23,430 bases of DNA from a virus (lineage: Duplodnaviria; Heunggongvirae; Uroviricota; Caudoviricetes): the IMG/VR virus record IMGVR_UViG_2671181100_000007, positions 1 through 23,430 of that record; one strand, written 5' to 3'. Of this stretch, positions 2,213-14,200 are shown piece by piece; the first letter of the stretch is position 1, and each line of letters starts with the position of its first letter. The translations under genes and the position numbers were made by a program. The notes under the pieces were generated by a model. The model did no database searches. It was not told the origin of the DNA and saw only the letters and a list, made by a program, of their open reading frames with translations.

Positions 2213-2250
2213 AAACCCTGATGGTTGGCGCCGTCAGGGTTTTACTTTTT
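2213..2250 (+). terminator. Intrinsic terminator hairpin (strong on plus strand, weak on minus strand just after the ImmA stop)
   Basis: AACCCTGA-N12-TCAGGGTT followed by TTTACTTTTTT on the plus strand. Confidence 0.5.
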
Positions 2251-2770
2251 TAATAACTGTTTTTGATAATCTGCTGCGTGTGCAGAAACCCCACACGCTT
2301 CAGCTATTTCTTCTACAGACATGCCTCTTAGTAGAGCTGCATGGCTGTAGGGGACGAGCAACTCTCCACTAAAGCACTTTGCCTGCCACTCGCTGCTTTC
2401 AAAAGCTCGAATTTCCACTCCTGGCTCAGCTCGAGCAAAAGCAATATTTTTATGCATTAGTAGATGTCCAATCTCATGAGCAACCGTCATACGATCACGC
2501 CCGTTTCCTTCATGAGCTCCCTCATAAACATCTTCACGAAGGATGATAAGCGAGTCCTGAGGCATAGTTAGCCCATGTGTCCCCCCCCATCTCCTTTTCA
2601 GAAGCTGTTTCAAACGAAAAGTTAGGTAAGATCTGCGGTAGTGCGAACTCCAGCATTTCAATTACGGGAAAATACAAATCATGTATTTTCAGCATCGAGC
2701 GTAATTTGCTTGTTAAACCACGCACCGCGTTGCGGCTTAAAGGTGGTACTCGATAATCTTGTCCGCTCAA
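2242..2770 (-). CDS. ImmA/IrrE-family zinc metallopeptidase (HEIGH motif), reading frame split at a C8/G8 homopolymer (2581-2588); intact only if the tract is 7 nt
   Basis: TTG start at 2770 with AGGAGG SD gives the N-terminal 78 codons; the C-terminal 139-codon ORF (2242-2661) contains TVAHEIGHLLMH (HExxH). The two frames join if one G is removed from the G8 run (minus-strand GAG ATG GGG GGG ACA CAT ... reads EMGGTHGLTMPQ). Confidence 0.7.
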
Positions 2771-2784
2771 ACAGAGCCTCCTAC

Positions 2785-3144
2785 TTATTGTTTTTTAGTT
2801 AACAATTCACGTAGACGTTTAAACTCATCATCACTTAATTCATCGAAATTACGTGCAAATGCCATCGCTACTTCACGAGCATTTTGATTCTTACCCGATA
2901 GATTAATCTCAACAGATTGTTGAGAATCACGCGCCGCTTTTGTTAACTCATCTCCTGCATGAACGCCTTCATTAGTGAAATAGCTAATGATACTTTTCAA
3001 TACAGGATCGGTTACAGCCCGCTTTCCTGTTTCAATTGCTGAGAGGTAAGACGAGGTCACGCCCATAGCATCAGCCATGCTTTTCAGCGTGACACCGACG
3101 TCTATACGTAATTTCCTTACTTTCTTACCAAACGGCGTTAACAT
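2785..3144 (-). CDS. XRE-family helix-turn-helix transcriptional regulator (ImmR-like partner of the metallopeptidase)
   Basis: 119 aa; N-terminal block VRKLRIDVGVTLKSMADAMGVTSSYLSAIETGKR fits the Cro/C1-type HTH pattern; ATG at 3144 with AGAGG SD; stop 12 nt upstream of the ImmA start (operon). Confidence 0.8.
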   Translation of the reverse strand: MLTPFGKKVRKLRIDVGVTLKSMADAMGVTSSYLSAIETGKRAVTDPVLKSIISYFTNEGVHAGDELTKAARDSQQSVEINLSGKNQNAREVAMAFARNFDELSDDEFKRLRELLTKKQ

Positions 3145-3568: not shown

Positions 3569-3638
3569 GACCCAATGTTTTAACTGCTCAGACCAGAAAT
3601 ATCTGGAAGCTTTAGGCATCTTCTTGGAAGATAGATGA

Positions 3639-3712
3639 GCGCAAAGACGCACACAGCAATGATGTTATGTAGTATTTTCCCCTTGAGTGTGCCTGCTCAA
3701 GGGGATTTTTTA
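3639..3712 (+). repeat. IR2 left copy (~74 bp), inverted copy of 7724-7798; contains terminator hairpin 3678-3711 (TCCCCTTGAG-N8-CTCAAGGGGA + T6)
   Basis: Aligns base-for-base with the reverse complement of 7724-7798 with about 4 mismatches; hairpin followed by TTTTTT on the plus strand. Confidence 0.65.
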
Positions 3713-3728
3713 TCGCCGTATTGTACTG

Positions 3729-3780
3729 GCAAATATTAGTAAATCGTCTTCACCCCACGCCTGTCACATCGGCCACACGC
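3729..3780. repeat. Decayed copy (B) of the invertase 3'-end sequence, abutting the stop of the recombinase-like fragment
   Basis: CACGCCTGTCACATCGGCCAC matches the invertase 3' coding sequence CACGCCTGTCACATCAGCCAC; reverse strand reads ..VADVTGVG* and, one frame over, VKTIY*. Confidence 0.55.
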
Positions 3781-3794
3781 GGCTGGACAGGCGG

Positions 3795-4217
3795 TTAGTC
3801 CGGTATGTTTCTCGCGCTACTACTGCTTACGTTAACGTCTGGTAATGATCTAGCGGCGCGACGTAAAGCGGCGTTGAAAGCAATTATAGTGACCGGCCGG
3901 CGTTGGTACTTCACACGGTTAGAATGGCTCTGAAATAAAAAAACATCTTCTGGATAGCGTTCTCTTCTACGAGCAATGATCCCCTCCACTGGAGGGGTTG
4001 ATTCAACACGTAGCTCTTTCAGGTGATCCTGTTTTCGTATCAGTATCAAGCCATCATCAATATCATCATATCGAATACTCAGCAGCCTTCCAGCGCTTAA
4101 ACCTGTGTGAAAAATTAACGCCCACAAGTCTGCCCATGTATCCGAGATGGAAACAAGATTGCTGTTAATAGTTAAAAATTGTTCAAAACTTATTGTTTTC
4201 TTACCGTTCACGAACAA
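3795..4217 (-). pseudogene. Tyrosine-recombinase-like fragment (FimB/FimE/Xer-type catalytic-domain N-terminal half; lacks the HxxR and Tyr region); TTG start, no SD
   Basis: 140-aa ORF with HTGLSAGRLLSIRYDDIDDGLILIRKQ resembling the first conserved box of tyrosine recombinases (TGxRxSELxxLxxxDID); ends before any H-x-x-R ... Y motif. Confidence 0.4.
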
Positions 4218-4294
4218 ACCAAACTGTTTTCAAAGCTGAATGAATTGATTAAGCCAAACGTAACATATCAGGAAAAGTAGTGAAATCTTTGTCT

Positions 4295-4842
4295 TCAAGT
4301 CGCCGGGAGGTACTTGTAGATTGTTTTCACGTCCACGCCTGTCACATCAGCCACCTGCTGCCGGGTAGCGCCAGTACCCAACATCCTGCGGCATCGCTCC
4401 ACAACCTCAGTGGTCATTACCCGCCGGCGGCCACCAATACACCCTGCTCTCTCGCCGCCACCAGGCCTGCGCGGGTCCTCTCCACAATCAGCTCTCGTTC
4501 CATCTCTACCAGCGCGCTCATGACGTGGAAGAAGAAGCGGCCGGCGGCCGTGCTGGTATCGATGCTATCGGTCAGGCTTCGGAAATTTACCCCGCGGGCC
4601 TGCAGCTCCGAGACCAGAGTGATTAAGTCGCGCACGCTGCGCCCCAGCCGATCCCGTTTCCAGACCACCAGCACATCGCCCGGGCGGAGCCGCCGTAAGG
4701 CGCGCTTTAACCCTGGCCGCCGGGCATTTTTCCCGCTGGCCATATCCTCAAAAACCAGCTCACATTCTGCGCGGAGCAGCGCGTTTTTCTGTAAATCGAG
4801 GTTTTGATCCCCGGTGGATACCCTCGCATAGCCAATCAGCAC
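4295..4842 (-). CDS. Serine DNA invertase (Gin/Pin/Hin/Cin family); frameshifted near 4436-4440 (catalytic domain ORF 4417-4842; C-terminal HTH continues in another frame to TGA at 4295-4297)
   Basis: GTG start with AGGAG SD; MLIGYARVSTGDQNLDLQ...VVWKRDRLGRS...SLTDSIDTSTAAGRFFFHVMSALVEMEREL is near-collinear with Mu Gin as recalled, including the catalytic Ser in RVSTGDQ. The shifted frame after codon ~135 reads IGGRRRVMTTEVVERCRRMLGTGATRQQVADVTGVDVKTIYKYLPAT (HTH domain). Confidence 0.85.
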
Positions 4843-4885
4843 TATCTAACTCCTTGAAATAGCTGATTGTAAAAAGCCACGGCCA

Positions 4886-4939
4886 TTCGCTCAAACCCTC
4901 GTTTGAGCGAACGCCTTTTTTGGAGCAAAAAACATGGCC
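4886..4939. repeat. Left inverted repeat (54 bp) containing a 26-bp gix/hix-like crossover site TTCGCTCAAACC-CT-CGTTTGAGCGAA (4886-4911), plus the RBS and ATGGCC start of the SGNH tail-fibre gene
   Basis: 53/54 identical to the reverse complement of 11198-11251; site has the Hin/Gin-type architecture (12-bp imperfect inverted half-sites with AAACC/GGTTT cores around a 2-bp centre). Confidence 0.75.
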
Positions 4940-6880
4940 TTTAACCCGGAGCTGGGGAGCACGTCTCCCGCTGTGTTGCTCGATAACGCCGAGCGCCTGG
5001 ATAAGCTGGTCAATGGGGATGCGGCCACCGTTCCCGACCGGGCCGGACAACCGCTGGACTCCTGGCGTCTTATGCTGCAGACCTTCGCTGCTGTTGTCGA
5101 AAATACCCGCCAGAACCTGATCCCACTTGGCAAGCAATACCAGAGTGTGGAAGAGGCTCAGGCTGATATTGCCAGTATTCCAGAAGGTGCCACCACCTAT
5201 GCACGCAGTCCGGATGATTCTGCTCTGGCGATCGAATACCGAAATGTCTCCGGGACGCTGACGGAAACCGGGCGCAGGATGCCATCACAGAGCTCTGTCG
5301 ACGCAGTTATCCAGTTTATCGATGAGTTTATTGCCAGTGGGGCTGTCAGTGGTGACTTCTTCCCTTTCTTTGTCGATGGGGCCGGGAACGTGCCTGTGTA
5401 CTGGGATAACGGTTTTGCGGTTTCCCGGATTGCCGCATCGTTGTATCAGATGATCTATGAGGATGTTCATGCGCGGCTGGGGGATGCGTTGAATGTGCAG
5501 GTAACAGGGGTTTCCCCTCTGTTTTTCCCGTTATTCATGGACAGCGCCGGCAATGTACCGGTGTACTGGAATGGTGGGCTGGATGCGTCGGCAATTGCGA
5601 CGGGGCTGCTGGAAAAAATATGGGCTTATATCAACGATATCATCGCCAGCGCGCTTAACCAGAATGTCCCTCTGGTTTCCCCTGGTTTTGTACCAGGGAT
5701 GATGGATGCCGCCGGAAACGTCCCGTTCTGGTTCCAGGATGGCGAGCTTGATGCGACGGGCATCGGGCCAAACATCAGGGGAATTTTTGCAAGATGGTAT
5801 CAGCGGCGTATGTACACCGCTGCTTACAACATTCCTCTGCATACCGACGGGCGAACTCTGTGGCGCTGGAAAGCGAAGAAAGCTCAGCTCAAAGCTGGCC
5901 TTGCAACCCGGCCACACTTCATGCTGACGGGTGACAGCTGGACGCAGAATAACGAACTGGCGACCGCTATCGCCGGGCTGCTGCATGATGATTATGGTGA
6001 TGCCGGTCTTGGCTGGCGCACGGTTAACTACGGAGCGGCACGCGATGGCTCGAATATCAACCGCTCTGCAGGGTGGAATTTGTATGACTCATCGCCGACA
6101 AGTGGTGCGCCGCTGTACGGCTGCGGAATTGATGGTCAGTCAGTCAATACGACCATGGCGACCGACTATTTCAGGGTGACGAATGTCCGCTGCACGGACT
6201 ACCGTATTTACTACCAGGATTTGAACGGGCGTTTCCAGTACGGCTACGACGCTGGCGGGATCACTCAGTGGACAGAGGTTGTCTGCGGGAATACCGGCAC
6301 GACAAAATCGGTGTTGCTGACAGGCATGGCCGACGAGGTCAGAACCATATACATCAAAACCGATGGCAACACGGGGCGTGTCGCTATCCACGGGTTTTAT
6401 CTGTGGCGCAGCGGCGTTGCGGGGTGTGTGATGAGCAAGGCGGGGAATTCCGGGATTCTTGCCGATCAGTTCCTGCTGTTCTCCGACAAAATCGCAGAGT
6501 ACCTGAGCACAATGCAGCCTGACGTGATTGCGATTGTCATCGGGAATAACGATTACAGGATTTCTGAATCGACAGCCACATTCCGTACTGCTCTGCAAAC
6601 GTACATTGCTGCCTGTCGCGCCGTGCTCCCTGATGTGAGCTTTATTCTGATGGCACCACCCCGCACGAACGGAACAGCAATAACGCCCATCGTTGATTTC
6701 CGTGATGTCATGTACGACCTGTCACAGACGCTGAATGTCGAGTTTTTCAGCATCTATGACCTTTTCGACTCCTGGGCTGAAATGAACAGCCTCGGCTGCT
6801 TTCTCGATAACCTGCACCCGAATGCTACGGGCAGCAACCTGGTCGCAACGTCACTCTACAATGCACTGATTAAAGGCTAA
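4934..6880 (+). CDS. Tail fibre/tailspike protein (648 aa): shared N-terminal anchor domain, three tandem ~55-aa repeats, C-terminal SGNH/GDSL hydrolase (esterase) domain
   Basis: N-terminal ~115 aa homologous to the N-terminus of the 1113-aa fibre. Repeats FPFFVDGAGNVPVYWDNG / FPLFMDSAGNVPVYWNGG / VPGMMDAAGNVPFWFQDG. SGNH blocks: MLTGDSWTQ (GDS), VIGNNDY (GxND), DNLHPN (DxxH). Confidence 0.8.
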   Translation: MAFNPELGSTSPAVLLDNAERLDKLVNGDAATVPDRAGQPLDSWRLMLQTFAAVVENTRQNLIPLGKQYQSVEEAQADIASIPEGATTYARSPDDSALAIEYRNVSGTLTETGRRMPSQSSVDAVIQFIDEFIASGAVSGDFFPFFVDGAGNVPVYWDNGFAVSRIAASLYQMIYEDVHARLGDALNVQVTGVSPLFFPLFMDSAGNVPVYWNGGLDASAIATGLLEKIWAYINDIIASALNQNVPLVSPGFVPGMMDAAGNVPFWFQDGELDATGIGPNIRGIFARWYQRRMYTAAYNIPLHTDGRTLWRWKAKKAQLKAGLATRPHFMLTGDSWTQNNELATAIAGLLHDDYGDAGLGWRTVNYGAARDGSNINRSAGWNLYDSSPTSGAPLYGCGIDGQSVNTTMATDYFRVTNVRCTDYRIYYQDLNGRFQYGYDAGGITQWTEVVCGNTGTTKSVLLTGMADEVRTIYIKTDGNTGRVAIHGFYLWRSGVAGCVMSKAGNSGILADQFLLFSDKIAEYLSTMQPDVIAIVIGNNDYRISESTATFRTALQTYIAACRAVLPDVSFILMAPPRTNGTAITPIVDFRDVMYDLSQTLNVEFFSIYDLFDSWAEMNSLGCFLDNLHPNATGSNLVATSLYNALIKG

Positions 6881-6886
6881 TTTCTT

Positions 6887-7687
6887 ATGAACAATATCTA
6901 TATCCCAAAACTCGGTGACGTCGTAATTCCGGGAACTCATCCGAAAAAAGGGCATTTCATGCAGCCGGATTTACCTGTTATCGCAGGGTTGAAAGCGATG
7001 TACATCCACGGCGGAACCTTAGAGCTGAGCATGAGAAACCGTGCCGACAACACCGCTCCACTGACCAAAGTCGGTTCGCCATCGATCCAGGCTGATTTCG
7101 GGGCGGTCTGTAGTTTCGGTAACTGTTTTGATACCGGGAAAGTTTCTACCAAAAACCAGACCCATATCGTGATCTGTAAGCCGGTAAAACCAACGGCGGC
7201 TACCGAAACCCAGCAGGCCTTCATGATGGGTAACTACAGCTATTCCGGCTCACCGGCAGTGTATCGCGGCGACGGACTCGCTTTTCTGTTTTCCGGGCAA
7301 AGTCTTTACGGGGCCTTTGTAGAGGACAATAACGTCACGCCAACGAACATGATCAACTACTACAGCGCGGCATACGACACAACGAAGTGGGCCGCTTTTG
7401 TGGAGCTGGTTGATGGTGACAATGGGATTGCCAGGATTGCTGCCAGGCAGGGAGGACCGCTTAACTGGCAGAACTCGAAAGCGTTGGTCAACCGAACCGC
7501 TTATACCGACCGCACGATCCGGATAGGTTCGCATCATGCGCCCGCTGCATACCCTGCAGGCGCTGCCATTACGATGGGGATGGAGCTGATTTTCGAGACA
7601 GCGCTGACACAGGCGCAGGTTGCTTCCGTTCTCGACAGTATAAGTGCCTATCTCAGTTCGGCATGGGGAATTACCGATTTAGGTTAA
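6887..7687 (+). CDS. Hypothetical protein co-encoded 6 nt downstream of the SGNH fibre gene (possible fibre-associated accessory or second receptor-binding subunit)
   Basis: 266-aa ORF, same strand and cassette as the fibre gene; no recognisable catalytic motif; weak SD. Confidence 0.45.
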   Translation: MNNIYIPKLGDVVIPGTHPKKGHFMQPDLPVIAGLKAMYIHGGTLELSMRNRADNTAPLTKVGSPSIQADFGAVCSFGNCFDTGKVSTKNQTHIVICKPVKPTAATETQQAFMMGNYSYSGSPAVYRGDGLAFLFSGQSLYGAFVEDNNVTPTNMINYYSAAYDTTKWAAFVELVDGDNGIARIAARQGGPLNWQNSKALVNRTAYTDRTIRIGSHHAPAAYPAGAAITMGMELIFETALTQAQVASVLDSISAYLSSAWGITDLG

Positions 7688-7723
7688 ATATATACGTTAC
7701 TGATTACCAGACGGGCAGGTAGA

Positions 7724-7798
7724 GAAAAAATCCCCCTGAGCAGGCACACTCAGGGGGAAAGTACTGCATAACATCATTGCTGTGTGCGTCTTTGCGCG
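7724..7798 (-). repeat. IR2 right copy; contains minus-strand intrinsic terminator (hairpin 7731-7758, U-run from 7725-7730) downstream of the 1113-aa fibre gene
   Basis: TCCCCCTGAG-N8-CTCAGGGGGA with A6 on the plus strand (T6 on minus); about 74 bp inverted identity to 3639-3712. Confidence 0.65.
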
Positions 7799-7861
7799 CA
7801 GCATATTTTCAGAGAAAACCTCCATCGTTTCCAGATGTTTCTTACTATTTCAGACTGTGTA

Positions 7862-10800
7862 CTAACCCTGGTTGTAAAAAAGCCACAAATCAGACAACGT
7901 TGACGCCACAAAACTGATCTCTGACAGCGTGTCTCCCGCAGCATTCGTGCCGTCGAATCCAAAGAACCGTTTAGGGAAGCCAGGCTTTGGCCCGTACTGC
8001 GTTTTCAGTTTATCCAGCAGACTGCCCGCTGCCGATAACGCTGATGGCCGGTCTGAAAAAAACAGCGGCAGCAGCGCAAAGGTGATGGTATTGGCAGCAC
8101 CCCGGCGGCTTTCGGAAATGCAAAAATCCACCTCCTTAAACGCCCCCATTCCGCTGGTCGCGGACAGAATGAAATTAACCAGGTCAAAGGCCGGTTTACG
8201 GTCCAGCAGTCTGCAGGCTAACAGATAGTTGTTAACGGCATAGCTGGCGTAGTGCAGGTACATCGCCCGGCTCGGGTATTCCGTCGCTGCATCCTGCAGA
8301 ATTCCTTCCGCCTTCATAAACTGGTTACGGTCCGTCAGCAGCGCCTCAACAGCATTAAAGGCTGTCAGGTAATGCCCGCTGCTGTCCTGCCCGGTATAAA
8401 TCCCCAGCGCCAGCGCCCGCAGTCCCGTGGCATTGGCATTACTGGCACCAATCCCGGTGGCTGTGCCAGCAATCTGAATACCGCCGTTGGCGGCCCAGTA
8501 CGTATAGACGGCATCCGCCAGGCTTTTTATCCCCGCCTTCAGCTCGGTAATTTTGGCCGGGTCACCCGCCTTCACCGCCATTTTGTAGAGCCACTCGTAA
8601 CAGGGAATGCTCAGACGCGACTGAAACTGCAGCCCCCACCACCCGCCGGTATACGCGGCCCCCGGATTGATGATGGAGCCCTTATCCAGTGCCATGTAAT
8701 TTTTAAAGGTGGCGTACACCGTATCCAGATCACCGGTGCCATAACGGGCCAGCAGGAAAATGTCCGCCGGTACACAATAAAATGCCGGATATTCCAGTTT
8801 ACCTTCACCGTTGATGAATGGCATGCCACCGCCATATTGGCGGGCGTCTTCCGATTTCCACCACTCCACTGAACCGCGAATATGGCAGGCCATTTTTTCC
8901 AGCAGATCCTGACGGATAACGCCCGCATAACCACAGTCACCCGCAAATCCTACCGGGCGGTTAAGTGCCTGGCTGTTAATGAGGGCATTCGTGGCATTCG
9001 ACGCCGCCGCTGTCACACTGTTATCGCAGTCAATCCACAGCTCGTGTGTCCAGGTCCAGCCTTTTTTCACCGGCCAGTTCAGGAACGAATAATCGGTAAT
9101 ATTCGATGAACCATACCGCCATCCGGCATCAATGCGGGTGTACGCTGCCCCGTCGGGTACCAGCGCCGTACCGCGAACCGGACGGTTTGGCCCGTAGGTT
9201 GGCCCGTCCCGGTGAACGTCTCCGTTTGCATAGACCAGCGCCGCCGTAAAGCGTTTACCCGTTGTGGCATCGGTAAAGTAAGCCAGCGCACGGGAGGTGT
9301 CGTAGGTGTACACTCCGTCGTTAAGCAGAAGTCGGGAGTACACCCCGAACAGCACGCCAACGGGAATATCCTGCATCGCCGTATTCATGACACGGACAGA
9401 AACCTTCCCGTTTCTGAACAGACGGTACCGGACTGTTGCCATCAGGGCGCCCTCTGCCAGCGTGTTTCCGGCCCGGTTACGTACCGTCATTTCCAGCTCG
9501 GTAAAGACCGGCCCTGTGTTCACCAGCCGGATGGATGCCCCCAGAATAAGCCGCTCATCCACCGCCACCCCGGCAACCACCTGGCTGTAATAGCAGCCGT
9601 GTGTAATGTTATGAACAATACCCGCCGGGTCGGTAATGCTGGTCAGGGCAAATCCCTGCTGGCGTAAAAAGGTGTATTTGTACCCGCTGACCGTCACGCT
9701 GTAACCGTCGGCAGTCTTCACCAGCTGCGGCCAGGAGCCAGAGGCCAGATCAGTCCGGCGACGGTTCCAGGCTTTCACCTCGTAATACTTCTGCGCACCA
9801 CTGGACAGCGAATCCAGAATGAAAACAGACCCTGCCGCCAGGGAGCCATCCGCGTGATAGCTGATATTCGACTTCTGACGCGGGTTAACATGGATATCAT
9901 CAGCAAACTGGGCATCAAACGTATTACCGTCAGTATCTGTCACCAGCAGGGCATCGGAATCCGGGACGTCACCGGGTGAGAAACTGACCCTGATTTCTAC
10001 CGGATAATTAACGTACCCGGCTGAAAGGGTATTTTTGACGTCCGTACCTTTTCGCTGATAGTTACCCACCCGCACCGATCGCACCACTTTACGCCGCCAG
10101 ACGGCATAACTTCCTGCCGGAAGGACAGCCAGACCGGATGTGGTGAAGCCTTCAGTGCTGACGGTATAGTCACCGGCAGGCAACAGGGCTTTGAAATAAT
10201 CCTCAAACCCGGTCTGTGCGATAGTGGTATCGTACGCCGCATATCCGGCAAACAGGCAATCCGGAGCAATAGTTTTCAGGTAGTCTCCCACCGTGGCGGC
10301 AGTAAAGCCCGCAGCAGTCAGCTCTGCCAGGGTGACCACAAACTGAATGGCATTCGCAATTGCCGTACCCGAAATGGACTTCCTCGTCACCGACGTGACC
10401 AGTCCGGCCTGAGCGGGGGCGAATTTCCCGGTTAAGTCCAGCGCGATATAGTTTGAACCGGCCACCGGGACGCCGAAGCCAGCAGGCAGGTCATAGCGCA
10501 CCCGGACCAGCGTTGCGGTGGTTTCCAGAATGCCCACATACTTCAGGTCCCGGAACCGGAAGAGGCGATAGGCTGACCAGAATTTTCCCTGAGCGTACTG
10601 CGTCTTTGTTCCCGGCAGTACAAAGGCCATCACTTCAGAACCCGCTGAAGAAAATACCAGCCGACTGTAAACCGTGTTCACATCCGACGTTGTCGCCAGG
10701 GTACGCAGTTCAATTACTGAATCTTCCGGTAGCATCAGCGCAGGGTCGTCCAGCAGCTTTAACCCTGTCAGATCCTGGTAGTCGCCATATTGTCGCTTAA

Positions 10801-11203
10801 TACCTTCCCGGTCTGTCAGCGTCGCTGTATATGCCAGCCCCGCTTCAACCCCTTCCTGCGAGAGCATTTTCCGCCCCGTGGCCGTTAGTGTCCCTGCCAC
10901 GTTCATATACTCTGTAGCCAGCGCGCTGCCGTCCTGGCTGCGCACGTAGGTTGTGGCGTTCACAGGGATATTCGCGATATCTGCCTGCGCTGCCGTCAGG
11001 GTCATGTACTGCTTACTGAGCGGGATGATGTTCTGCCGAATTTCGTCATTCTTTGCCATCATCTGGCGCCAGGTATCGAGCGGTTCGCCTGCGCGGTCGT
11101 TAACCGTTCCGGCCGGACCGTTAACCAGCTCGTCAGCGCGCTTGACGTTATCCAGGAATATTTCAGGCGTCGTCGTTCCCAAAGGCGGGTTAAGTTCGGC
11201 CAT
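7862..11203 (-). CDS. Tail fibre/tailspike protein (1113 aa) with shared N-terminal anchor domain and large unassigned C-terminal region (candidate receptor-binding or polysaccharide-degrading domain); the cassette currently in the expressed orientation
   Basis: ATGGCC start inside the right IR, 23 bp after the gix-like site; same strand as the upstream tail operon; N-terminal ~115 aa homologous to the 4934 ORF. Confidence 0.8.
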   Translation of the reverse strand: MAELNPPLGTTTPEIFLDNVKRADELVNGPAGTVNDRAGEPLDTWRQMMAKNDEIRQNIIPLSKQYMTLTAAQADIANIPVNATTYVRSQDGSALATEYMNVAGTLTATGRKMLSQEGVEAGLAYTATLTDREGIKRQYGDYQDLTGLKLLDDPALMLPEDSVIELRTLATTSDVNTVYSRLVFSSAGSEVMAFVLPGTKTQYAQGKFWSAYRLFRFRDLKYVGILETTATLVRVRYDLPAGFGVPVAGSNYIALDLTGKFAPAQAGLVTSVTRKSISGTAIANAIQFVVTLAELTAAGFTAATVGDYLKTIAPDCLFAGYAAYDTTIAQTGFEDYFKALLPAGDYTVSTEGFTTSGLAVLPAGSYAVWRRKVVRSVRVGNYQRKGTDVKNTLSAGYVNYPVEIRVSFSPGDVPDSDALLVTDTDGNTFDAQFADDIHVNPRQKSNISYHADGSLAAGSVFILDSLSSGAQKYYEVKAWNRRRTDLASGSWPQLVKTADGYSVTVSGYKYTFLRQQGFALTSITDPAGIVHNITHGCYYSQVVAGVAVDERLILGASIRLVNTGPVFTELEMTVRNRAGNTLAEGALMATVRYRLFRNGKVSVRVMNTAMQDIPVGVLFGVYSRLLLNDGVYTYDTSRALAYFTDATTGKRFTAALVYANGDVHRDGPTYGPNRPVRGTALVPDGAAYTRIDAGWRYGSSNITDYSFLNWPVKKGWTWTHELWIDCDNSVTAAASNATNALINSQALNRPVGFAGDCGYAGVIRQDLLEKMACHIRGSVEWWKSEDARQYGGGMPFINGEGKLEYPAFYCVPADIFLLARYGTGDLDTVYATFKNYMALDKGSIINPGAAYTGGWWGLQFQSRLSIPCYEWLYKMAVKAGDPAKITELKAGIKSLADAVYTYWAANGGIQIAGTATGIGASNANATGLRALALGIYTGQDSSGHYLTAFNAVEALLTDRNQFMKAEGILQDAATEYPSRAMYLHYASYAVNNYLLACRLLDRKPAFDLVNFILSATSGMGAFKEVDFCISESRRGAANTITFALLPLFFSDRPSALSAAGSLLDKLKTQYGPKPGFPKRFFGFDGTNAAGDTLSEISFVASTLSDLWLFYNQG

Positions 11204-11251
11204 GTTTTTTGCTCCAAAAAAGGCGTTCGCCCAAACGAGGGTTTGAGCGAA
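11198..11251. repeat. Right inverted repeat (54 bp) containing gix/hix-like site (11226-11251; minus strand TTCGCTCAAACC-CT-CGTTTGGGCGAA)
   Basis: Inverted copy of 4886-4939 with one mismatch; lies between the J-like gene stop (11280) and the fibre start (11203). Confidence 0.75.
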
Positions 11252-11279
11252 AGAAAAGTTGAAAGGGATTTTTTTGGTA

Positions 11280-14200
11280 TTAAGCAGCGTCGCCGGGGTA
11301 TGTGGCGTCGTCGTACTGGTAGAACGATTCGAGGTATTCTTTAGCGGTGACCTGGCATGTTCCGTCAGACTGCGGGGCGATCTCCTCTACAATGGCGTCG
11401 TAGACGTGGCGCGTTGATCCGCAGAACACCAGGCGGATCGGCTCGATGGTTGCCGACGACAGGTCAACCTTCATCGGGTCATCAAACTCGCTCAGGTGCG
11501 GGACTGACAGCTGAAAATCGCCTACCCTGCTCGCCACCATCAGCCCGGATGCAGAACCATCCTGATAGCGGATCAGCGCGCGGGGATTTTCGAAAGACCA
11601 GTCCAGCGGCTCCGTAACGGTGAACGTTGTCACGCCACCAGCCGTTGTCATCGCCTCCACCAGACAGGAAATCGTGTTGTTACCCGGAATATCATCCGTG
11701 AGCACAATGCGATCGCCCAAGTTGTAGCACAGCGCGTCCAGCTCGGTAGTGGTCTGGAACGTCACCCGCTGCTGCAGGTATTTCATCAGGCGACGCATGC
11801 CGAGCTGGTAGGCGTGATCCTGATTCAGTACCCCATCGAGTTTGTAGTTTTCGATTTTCACTGGCGTTGGATTGTCCGACGTCCGGCATTTAACGGTCTC
11901 CTCTGCCCAGGTGACGCCGTTGATGTACGTCACGTCGACGCCATCAAAATCATCGTCAGACGGTACGATAAATCCGCTTTGCAGCTCCTCCACCATCTCA
12001 TGCGGAGTGATCACGCCAGTCCAGGGCTTAATCCCCTCACGGTTGACCGTCGCCAGGCCATCGCTCAACAGGAAGCGGGACTTCCCGGCATTGGCTATCT
12101 TCTGCAGCATTTCCAGCGCTGAGATACTGTCGCCGGTAGCGAAATCGAAATACTCTCCCCGTGGCGTCCAGTACGCAGACTCCAGCGCGTTGATGGTGTC
12201 GGCATCCATCTCCAGTCCCAGCGAGTTCCCGACATGCAGCAGCGCCCCAGAAATGGTTCTGGCCGTTCCTGAGTCATAGGCCCGCGTGGCCACCACGTTT
12301 ACGCGGCGGTCCGACTGAGCCGCCAATTTGCCCCCCGTCTCAACGGTCACCGCCATCAGCGACACGCCGGGATAGGATGAAGGGCGCGTCAGCAGTCGCC
12401 CGCGCAGTGCCTGCCAGTACATCGAATCCCTGGCGTTGTTTGAGCCCTGCTCATTGCGCCGGCGACAGCGAACCTCTACCAGCCCTGGTGAGCTGAGGGT
12501 GATCCGCTCAGTGAATCCCAGCCCGTTGACGTTTTTAAGCGCATACTCTCCCTGGTGACTCACCCACCCCGATCCGGAACCGTAGACGCGATACTGAATC
12601 TCCCACTCCACGTGGCGGATCCGTTTTTTGCCCTTACTGTCAAAGCCACAGATGCCGTTCGGGAAGGAGAAATTCACCTCGAATGCATCCACCACTTCAT
12701 TCTCAGGGCAAACCAGGAACGGCCCCAGCCAGCTCAGCGTGTCGTTAAGACCAGTGGCCTCATAGTCGATCATCGTCCGGGCGGAGAATCCCGGCCATGA
12801 CTCATCAACGGCACCGGAAACCAGGCGCACCACCGTCGCCGTCGTGCCGTCAGCTGACACAATCCGGTACTCATTCCCGCGGTGAGCAAGTGAAAGCCGT
12901 TGCACCCCCTCCGGCATCCCGGAGAATGCAGTGCCCGTGGCGCTGTTATAGGCAAGCGTCACATTCGCCGTTACCGCCGGGCTGCCGCCGGTTGATGCCG
13001 TGCCGGAGGTGTAAACCGGAGCATCACCGAAAACAGCTGCAGGCAGCGAAGAGGACGTGATCGCCCCACCCGCGAACGGACTGGCCGACTCGGTTATCAG
13101 TACGGTGCCGCCGTTGTCCTGTGCAACCAGGCCGGAGCCAGTGAGTCCCTCGGTGATGGCCGCCAGCAGTCCCGACATCGAGACATAGTTAGCCACCAGC
13201 GACACCGGGTAGGTAACCCCCTGCCAGGTGATCGTGAACGTGCTGGAGCTGGTCGAAAAATCGTAGGTGGTCGGGGCCGCACTGGCCTGGACTTTTGCCG
13301 CACTCCCCCCGGTGCCGGGCACTGCAGCCTGACCGGGGGTATATGACGCGATAAACAGATCGTAATCGACAGAGTTAAACCCCAGCGTCACCGGCATTCC
13401 AACCACCGGCGCGATCTCCGTCAGCAGCGGGCTGGCGATAACGCTGTATCCAGCCGCCGTGGTGATCTGGTAGTTCGCCGGGGCTTTCAGTTCGACCACG
13501 GCGCCAGCGACCCAACTGGGCGGCAGTGCGTTATCGTTCTCGTCATTATCGTCATCATCATCCGTATCCAGCCCGGTAAACGTTACGCTCGAACCGGATA
13601 CGGTCATGCTGTCTGCGATAATGTCGTCTGCGTCCGGCGACGTCTGGGCCATATCCAGCCCGGTGCCGGATGACGTCCCGCCCACTTCGGTGGAGTTGAC
13701 CCAGTTTTCGCTGCGCTCATCACCGGAAACGTCCGCGCCTGGCGGGTAATGGGTGCTGCTGAATCCCGGTAGCGTTGAAGCTGGCGTACTGCCAACCCGG
13801 ATATCGCCATTGGTATAAATCAGATCACCGACACCGAGACACAGCAGCATCTGGACGCGCATTTTCGTAGGATCGGCGGCATCAAACCGGGTAACGGGCT
13901 GCACGACATAATCCGGATAAATACGCACGCGCCCAAAAACTTCACGAATCGCATCACCCAGTTTCGCGCTGTTTCCTTTAGCGGGGTTCAGGTCGAGGCT
14001 TCGACCTGTGGATGACGTATAGCCGCCGGCATCAATGTTACTCATCATGAACAATGAATAAGCCGCAGATGCGACGGCAATGCCCACTCCTATCCAGGCA
14101 ATTGTCGCGGCCTCAAGCCCGAAAGGCACCGGATAAAGCCGGACATCACTATCAGGGTGGATCACGAAAATAGCCCATTCGCCTGGCGGAATTGACTGCC

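Follow-up and report, generated by a model that had tools for sequence, protein, structure and literature searches.

A probable Gin-type inversion switch with crossover sites in the leaders of complete fibre genes, in a siphovirus prophage beside yfdC of Escherichia coli

Two opposed fibre cassettes and their crossover sites

The window analysed here is a stretch of 23,430 nt from the IMG/VR virus record IMGVR_UViG_2671181100_000007. Our subject is its segment 4886-11251 (~6.4 kb), in which two opposed, complete fibre cassettes are bracketed by an inverted repeat of 54 nt, together with the adjacent gene of a Gin-family serine DNA invertase (Table 1). The window begins with yfdC, 98.7% identical to E. 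coli, hence the element is a prophage located beside yfdC in E. coli; among phages it is most closely related to Klebsiella prophages. The data described below make it very probable that this siphovirus prophage carries a Gin-type site-specific inversion switch, with 4886-11251 as its invertible segment.

The J-like gene is fixed, closes the tail operon and reads into the segment. Directly behind it in the window stands the 1113-aa gene of cassette A, in what we infer to be the position for expression, while cassette B, which faces the invertase in this orientation and encodes a 648-aa protein with a 266-aa partner, is presumably silent. The 648-aa protein starts with an anchor of ~125 aa, conserved in an N-terminal alignment, and ends in an SGNH/GDSL esterase domain. 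The 1113-aa protein has an anchor domain of the same type and had no Pfam, NCBIfam or PDB sequence match beyond it. The N-terminal ~125 aa of the two proteins are 58% identical, which agrees with the preliminary description of this DNA, made from the sequence alone, where complete cassettes with their own diverged anchors had been claimed to lie behind sites in the 5' leader. Between the cassettes one terminator-like hairpin (7758-7731, minus strand) stands behind the 1113-aa gene and another (7778-7803, plus strand) behind the 266-aa gene.

A repeat search of the window gave the arms of the inverted repeat as 4886-4939 and 11198-11251, which are 98% complementary, are separated by 6258 nt and differ at a single position (4906 A versus 11231 C), so the near-perfect inverted copy described earlier is indeed present. 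To judge from the sequence, a match at 53 of the 54 arm positions cannot have arisen by chance in 23 kb. The outer end of each arm is a 26-bp site: the left one is given in Table 1, the right arm read as reverse complement (11251-11226) begins with TTCGCTCAAACC CT CGTTTGGGCGAA, and both fit the 12-2-12 near-palindrome TTCGCTCAAACC CT CGTTTG(A/G)GCGAA. The same 12-2-12 layout is found in gix and cix, taken from the Mu and P7 records, to which the window-type sites are identical at 15/26 and 16-17/26 positions, respectively; their earlier assignment to the Hin/Gin/Cin type with a central CT is thereby confirmed. The repeat boundary is exactly the outer edge of the 26-bp site, and the window flanks beyond the two sites are unrelated. 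As had been described, the right site lies between the J-like and the 1113-aa genes, beginning 28 nt past the J stop codon. The inner part of each arm is a leader of 22 nt with a GGAG ribosome-binding site (23 bp in the preliminary description), which separates the site from the ATGGCC start at 4934 (+) or 11203 (-), and stop codons lie upstream of the ATG at both ends of the segment.

Both sites also score as terminator-like: read along fibre transcription, an 11-bp stem with a 4-nt loop is followed by CGCCTTTTTT. The palindrome forms a hairpin in the leader RNA 11190-11285 (-) (minimum free energy -19.8 kcal/mol, z -2.2), and a weak second hairpin covers the ribosome-binding site. The crossover site may have a dual role, as DNA and as RNA.

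The invertase gene starts with GTG at 4842 (-), 43 nt outside the left site. Its catalytic domain, in which the serine recombinase motif VLIGYARVSTGDQ is present, occupies an open reading frame (ORF) of 141 aa (4417-4842, minus strand) that ends in a premature stop, and the helix-turn-helix (HTH) part can be read in the -1 frame alone, as far as the stop codon at 4295-4297. The responsible deletion was placed by a MAFFT alignment of the window gene with the intact genes of the related loci L013, L014 and L015 from E. coli genomes. Intact relatives have 182-189 aa and align end to end with Gin and Cin. An intact relative shares 63% of its residues with Mu Gin and 67% with P7 Cin, and in a PDB search its best match was Gin (4m6f/3uj3, E 2.5e-72), versus E 1e-33 to 1e-29 for gamma-delta/Tn3 resolvases. 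The enzyme is thus closer to invertases than to resolvases, and on the sequence evidence the window gene is a pseudogene of the Gin family. The 1-nt deletion removes the DNA-binding HTH domain, therefore the window prophage cannot flip itself: the family and the distance of ~45 bp named in the preliminary description hold, but the enzyme cannot act on its own copy of the segment. Rescue by programmed frameshifting was considered and, by inspection only, appears unlikely, as it would need a -1 shift at CAG GGT, where there is no slippery heptamer.

The -35 hexamer of the promoter-like element of the invertase sits inside the outer half of the left crossover site. A crude Fis consensus scan detected Fis-like 15-mers at nt 30 and nt 78 of both cin and gin, and the cin enhancer of the P7 record (cin nt 19-86) spans both positions. 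The nt-78 site is kept in the window invertase family and is homologous to the distal Fis-like site of the cin/gin enhancers.

Table 1. Features of the switch locus, in coordinates of the window
Feature	Position	Strand	Evidence or sequence
Gin-family serine DNA invertase gene, inactivated by a 1-nt deletion	4295..4842	-	PF00239 Resolvase E 7.2e-47
Frameshift position	4442..4444	-	GGG in the window, GGGG in intact relatives; GAGCAGGGG -> GAGCA-GGG
Fis-like 15-mer GCGCAGAATGTGAGC, candidate half of a recombinational enhancer	4758..4772	-	centred on invertase nt 78
Invertase promoter-like element	4866..4894	-	TTGAGC, 17 nt, TACAAT; consensus match only
Left, invertase-proximal crossover site, 26 bp	4886..4911		TTCGCTCAAACC CT CGTTTGAGCGAA
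Shared leader (inner part of the repeat), 22 nt with GGAG ribosome-binding site, then ATGGCC	4912..4939	+	
Cassette B fibre/receptor-binding protein, 648 aa	4934..6880	+	PF13472 E 7e-11, PF00657 E 4e-8, phrog_14987
Cassette B partner, 266 aa	6887..7687	+	phrog_4390 E 2e-65
Convergent terminator-like hairpins between the cassettes	7731..7803		promoter/terminator scan
Cassette A fibre/receptor-binding protein, 1113 aa	7862..11203	-	ORF list; phrog_20877 E 5e-173
Cassette A leader, ribosome-binding site and ATGGCC (inner right arm)	11198..11225	-	
Right, J-proximal crossover site, 26 bp	11226..11251		+ strand: TTCGCCCAAACG AG GGTTTGAGCGAA
J-like (TipJ) tip-attachment gene, 1022 aa	11280..14348	-	PF24801 FNIII-A_GpJ E 6e-10, phrog_469 E 8e-294

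Orientation of the segment in public genomes

The preliminary description had proposed to look for both orientations in assemblies of related strains, and both exist. An exact look-up of the 648-aa protein in public assemblies retrieved the same prophage, 99.97-100% identical, in both arrangements: 7 of the 9 places shown are collinear with the window and two, L008 and L010, are inverted, with the gene order J, 648, 266 on one strand. A further 15 places were collapsed onto representatives with the window orientation. Inversion of 4886-11251 is all that separates L008 (GCA_052207375.1) from the window; across the segment the identity is 100%, and the flanks have one difference each, at 4906 and 11231, which is the mismatch of the repeat travelling with the segment. 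A junction modelled with the crossover at the central dinucleotide matches L008 at 801/801 positions. In both L008 and L010 the crossover maps to 4886-4905, and it is thus shown to lie within a 20-bp interval that contains the centre of the site with its CT. The predicted inversion, which puts the SGNH fibre and its 266-aa partner behind J, is realised in L008, in L010 and in E. coli WP2-S18-ESBL-08.

The same invertase frameshift is shared by 9/9 distinct contigs of the window lineage. L008 is among them, therefore the inversion is younger than the frameshift; as L008 is otherwise identical to the window, the inversion is also very recent. L010 is inverted on a differing J background, with a recombinant patch at 12891-14197, which suggests that more than one event took place. 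When 10 kb of tail genes are compared between the window and L010, 57 of the 59 differences cluster within the J-like gene, as a patch in the tip protein. The window's own two junctions were sought in complete E. coli genomes, from which this exact prophage is absent, and relatives were found instead.

Inversion is also seen in lineages with an intact invertase. The complete genomes of E. coli EC28 and ES4 hold one prophage with identical proteins, in which a 6.16-kb segment is inverted: the flanks are 99.93-99.95% identical and collinear, and the inverted segment is 99.92% identical. WP2-S18-ESBL-08 carries at the same yfdC site an intact invertase of 187 aa; its segment, 97.1% identical to that of the window, is turned the other way.

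To describe the family we surveyed 80 IMG/VR loci with an invertase at least 88% identical. Two inverted sites are present in 48 of them, and in 45 of these 48 large inward-facing ORFs (515-1360 aa) stand at both sites; the segments measure 5.1-8.4 kb. The spacing from site to start is 20-24 nt in 101/102 cassettes, the central dinucleotide is CT in 108/108 sites and the outer half-site is TTCGCTCAAACC in 104/108. Beyond the sites the sequences are unrelated (median 5/30 identical, the chance level), in 18/48 loci exact identity of the two arms goes no further than the inner edge of the 26-bp site, and the longest exact block is no longer than 29 nt in 27/48 loci, including the flip pair L091/L094. 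All cassettes have a conserved N-terminal domain of ~120 aa and are divergent thereafter. The 45 loci contain 46 fibre types, 17 of which occur in both positions, and both orientations were found for 4 of the 5 cassette pairs that recur in the survey. The leader-site layout is not peculiar to the window: siphovirus prophages of Klebsiella and E. coli form a large family in which it is the rule. A scan of the GTDB species representatives with the site pattern returned four single-site enterobacterial loci and chance matches in Mycobacterium and Ruminococcus.

Mechanism, alternatives and relation to known systems

The two cassettes are built alike: each has an N-terminal anchor and a terminator-like hairpin of its own, and each is preceded by the common 22-nt leader with its ribosome-binding site and, immediately before the leader, by a 26-bp site. 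We propose that late transcription passing through the tail operon and J would read into whichever cassette is adjacent to J. The invertase, probably with the help of Fis, as its family suggests, would cut both sites at the central CT/AG and rotate the segment, which would bring the other cassette behind J. Virions would in this way alternate their receptor-binding proteins, one of which has an SGNH esterase domain, and the host range would change. The frameshifted lineage would be flipped in trans by the invertase of a co-resident prophage of the same family. Since isomers with the same invertase deletion exist, a trans-acting invertase most likely drives the inversion in the window lineage, and such a supply is plausible given that two invertase loci of the window family occur together in 8 isolate genomes of the 80-locus survey.

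One could argue that the flips are rare products of RecA-dependent homologous recombination between 54-nt repeats, which would be nothing else than the shared leaders of paralogues, and that the invertase is uninvolved. Indeed, the inversion happened although the invertase is broken in the window lineage, the 54-nt repeat with its 33-nt exact block exceeds the minimum length for RecA, and the orientation is stable in 10/10 genomes of the 5CRE51 lineage. However, the crossover in L008 and L010 took place in the 20-bp outer block 4886-4905 and not in the longer, 33-bp inner block that RecA would favour, and L091/L094 flipped, with a segment 100% identical, on an exact repeat of just 26 nt. The short exact repeats together with the crossover position in L008 and L010 therefore argue for site-specific recombination and not for RecA. 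Moreover, RecA leaves unexplained the non-palindromic central CT of 108/108 sites and the intact invertase located 43 nt from one site in dozens of loci. Thus it is improbable that RecA accounts for the flips.

With an equally small probability, the switch of the window prophage is a frozen relic, functionless now, and its inverted isomers descend from one old event. This notion finds some ground in the frameshift of the invertase, in the ORF 3795-4217 that matches part of the integrase profile phrog_1, in a second remnant of the invertase 3' end at 3726-3790, and in the predominance of the window orientation (7 of the 9 places shown, with the 15 collapsed places under representatives of this orientation). 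A relic is nevertheless hard to reconcile with an inversion that postdates a frameshift common to the whole lineage and, as L008 indicates, is very recent, and with L010, whose inversion sits on another J background and points to more than one event; in addition, both sites, both leaders and both ORFs are intact.

An assembly artefact, a doubt that the preliminary description had itself raised, is refuted: some contigs do break in the repeat (L010 ends at 11230) and the Logan contig L035 is the segment alone, as small k-mers predict, but single contigs and finished genomes from independent laboratories span both orientations (L008, EC28, ES4, WP2-S18-ESBL-08) and the repeat is present in every assembly. 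The breaks inside the repeat in L010 and L035 were also considered as a sign of mixed orientation and were rejected as such, since small k-mers break at the 33-nt exact block anyway.

We return to the Gin-type site-specific switch, against which several points have to be weighed. The evidence for two orientations consists of comparisons between separate assemblies and genomes. The window invertase is a pseudogene, and in the 5CRE51 lineage, which has an intact invertase, 10 complete genomes gave 10 native and 0 recombinant junctions, so flipping is not fast enough to randomise assemblies. A recombinational enhancer of this kind has two Fis sites 48 bp apart; the nt-30 position is GC-rich in the window family, which leaves one of the two expected sites recognisable. 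The terminator-like character of the crossover sites may reflect a second role, or the palindrome may have been shaped in part by such a role. Finally, expression of the J-proximal cassette alone and the change of host range are what we infer from this arrangement.

The segment also appears to be mobile. Between the window and WP2-S18-ESBL-08 (L013 12387-18751) the segment is 97.1% identical, the invertase 86.6% and J 73%, and the homology ends exactly at 4886 and 11251, the outer edges of the sites. The segment of L091/L094 is 100% identical versus 98.4% and 96.4% for the flanks, and that of L045/L075 98.7% versus ~92%. These values suggest horizontal exchange, in which the site-bounded segment moves between phage backbones as a unit. 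Should the shared sites themselves bring about this exchange when related prophages reside in one host, the process would amount to a natural form of recombinase-mediated cassette exchange; lineages whose own invertase is dead would owe their flips to an enzyme acting in trans, and one system would serve both to switch and to shuffle host range. Only tentatively, and as a possibility we would not yet bet on, do we put forward that these loci constitute an undescribed, widespread class of leader-site Gin-type switches of Klebsiella/E. coli temperate siphoviruses with a horizontally exchanged segment module.

The system shares with the G segment of Mu the invertase family, inverted 26-bp sites, an invertase gene just beyond one site that is directed away from the segment, and the plan of two opposed fibre modules alternated behind a fixed late operon, with host-range switching as the purpose. 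However, the boundary of G lies 509 nt inside gene S (AF083977), the constant N-terminal part Sc remains outside, and only the C-terminal parts and the chaperones are swapped, whereas in the window system the site precedes the start by 22 nt and complete genes with their own diverged anchors are on the segment. The window phage is a siphovirus with a J-type tip and Mu is a myovirus; the window-type cassettes carry enzyme domains (SGNH esterase and others), while Mu has fibres with U-type chaperones. The C segment of P1/P7 with Cin likewise has the invertase family and the site architecture in common with the window system, and the Fis-like 15-mer occupies the place that the distal half takes in the annotated cin enhancer. 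It differs in the crossover, which according to the P7 record is inside gene S with constant Sc outside, in the 3' end of cin abutting cixL, whereas the window invertase faces the site with its 5' end, and in the second Fis site, unrecognisable in the window family. The preliminary description was right that in the classical segments of Mu and P1/P7 the crossover is intragenic, and this feature, with a constant Sc and a variable Sv, is absent from the window system.

The invertible H segment of the Hin system carries the promoter, and the genes lie beyond it. Hin has in common with the window system a serine-family invertase, 26-bp sites and the switching of whole genes with unchanged coding sequences, but here the source of transcription is outside the segment and the genes are inside. 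A consensus scan found no promoter-like site inside the segment beside either site, and the sole promoter-like match near a site points outward to the invertase. As genes and not a promoter are on the segment, this is not a promoter switch of the Hin (or fimS) type.

The same module is present in the Klebsiella phage KPP5665-2 (MF695815), in which J is followed by a 1220-aa fibre that faces a 650-aa fibre and its partner of 252 aa, and the invertase and the integrase come next. Its invertase is intact and 97.8% identical to a window-family invertase, and its cassettes differ from those of the window. KPP5665-2 is an isolated, plaque-forming temperate siphovirus of Klebsiella, and its announcement is silent on the invertase and on inversion (PMC5658490). 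Deposited prophages with the module are those of Kpn_R1 and of E. coli EC28, ES4 and WP2-S18-ESBL-08. In 'phage #4' of K. pneumoniae ST14 a ~5-kb inversion of five ORFs adjacent to a DNA invertase, fibre genes included and with no ORF disrupted, arose in a laboratory evolution experiment, and its authors propose reduced fibre production (bioRxiv 10.64898/2025.12.17.694638). This inversion is known to us by its published description and is probably of the same kind of module; unlike our reading of the window switch, no alternation of two receptor-binding proteins was proposed by the authors. The literature that we searched holds no description of a leader-site layout for switching whole fibre genes. 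The preliminary suggestion of a distinct, possibly undescribed layout thus stands in the second respect, but the layout is shared by a large prophage family including KPP5665-2, and the 2025 preprint had already noticed, without explaining it, an ORF-preserving inversion beside an invertase in a Klebsiella prophage. The enzyme and the sites are of the ordinary Gin type; what is new is the architecture and its distribution, not the chemistry.

The capsule or O-antigen types open to a Klebsiella or E. coli phage are set by its receptor-binding proteins, and the host range read from a genome would depend on the orientation of the segment. Host-range predictions for prophages and depolymerase catalogues should accordingly include the 'silent' cassette, and apparent rearrangements in evolution experiments may be such a switch acting. 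Because the leader, not the gene, holds the crossover, a complete receptor-binding protein gene of any kind can slot in if it has the short common leader. This design fits the reassortment that we observe, i.e. 46 fibre types at 45 loci and segments more conserved than their flanks, and points to a natural chassis on which phages could be engineered so that their tropism can be switched or exchanged.

Neighbouring genes and side observations

The genes upstream of J are those of a siphovirus tail (DUF1833, tape-measure and others), and RefSeq relatives of the J-like gene are annotated 'host specificity factor TipJ family phage tail protein'. The 266-aa partner of cassette B shows a weak relationship to proteins of 238-252 aa that trail the fibre genes in sister cassettes, with 16-24% identity to the partners in L014, L015, L024, L027 and L029. 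It had no Pfam, NCBIfam or PDB match and a faint Laminin_G_3 hint (E 0.1), and its AlphaFold2 model (predicted local distance difference test score 41) was unusable.

At the prophage end by yfdC an HTH_3 regulator (2785-3144, minus strand) is paired with a Peptidase_M78 / ImmA-IrrE-like protein (2242-2661, minus strand). No full integrase lies between yfdC and the invertase in the window, whereas KPP5665-2 has one there. The 140-aa ORF 3795-4217 (-), phrog_19751, matches only positions 268-388 of the 611 of the integrase profile (E 1e-8) and is probably an integrase fragment. The block of ~580 nt that holds this ORF is flanked by a direct repeat of the invertase 3' end (3726-3790 versus 4303-4364, 84-90% identical), which looks like a scar of insertion or recombination.

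A second inverted repeat of the window, 3636-3714 and 7722-7800 (79 nt, 92% identical), contains a strong terminator hairpin. One copy of this element stands just behind the 1113-aa gene and the other left of the invertase region; no isomer inverted between the two copies was seen. The element recurs in 70 fetched sources, usually ~10 or ~590 nt past the stop codon of the invertase but in some cases between the cassettes, and most IMG/VR relatives have the same 580-nt gap from the invertase stop to the element.

Decay and cargo are found at the switch locus of several relatives. In Escherichia phage vB_EcoS-733R5 (L003, ON470608) a truncated invertase lies by a retron-type reverse transcriptase at 3823-5817, and the J-proximal site alone remains. 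Klebsiella phage ST405-OXA48phi1.3 (L002) has a TIR-domain gene inserted in the tail operon at 5476-6354, and in E. coli p10A (L026) IS26 at 10541-11245 truncates the segment right past the invertase-proximal site. The Stenotrophomonas phages vB_SmeS_BUCT708 and BUCT709 (OM816834, OM816835) have an invertase 86.7% identical to the enterobacterial window family and match the window at 4317-4873 with 77% identity; the Stenotrophomonas label is unexpected for an enterobacterial family.

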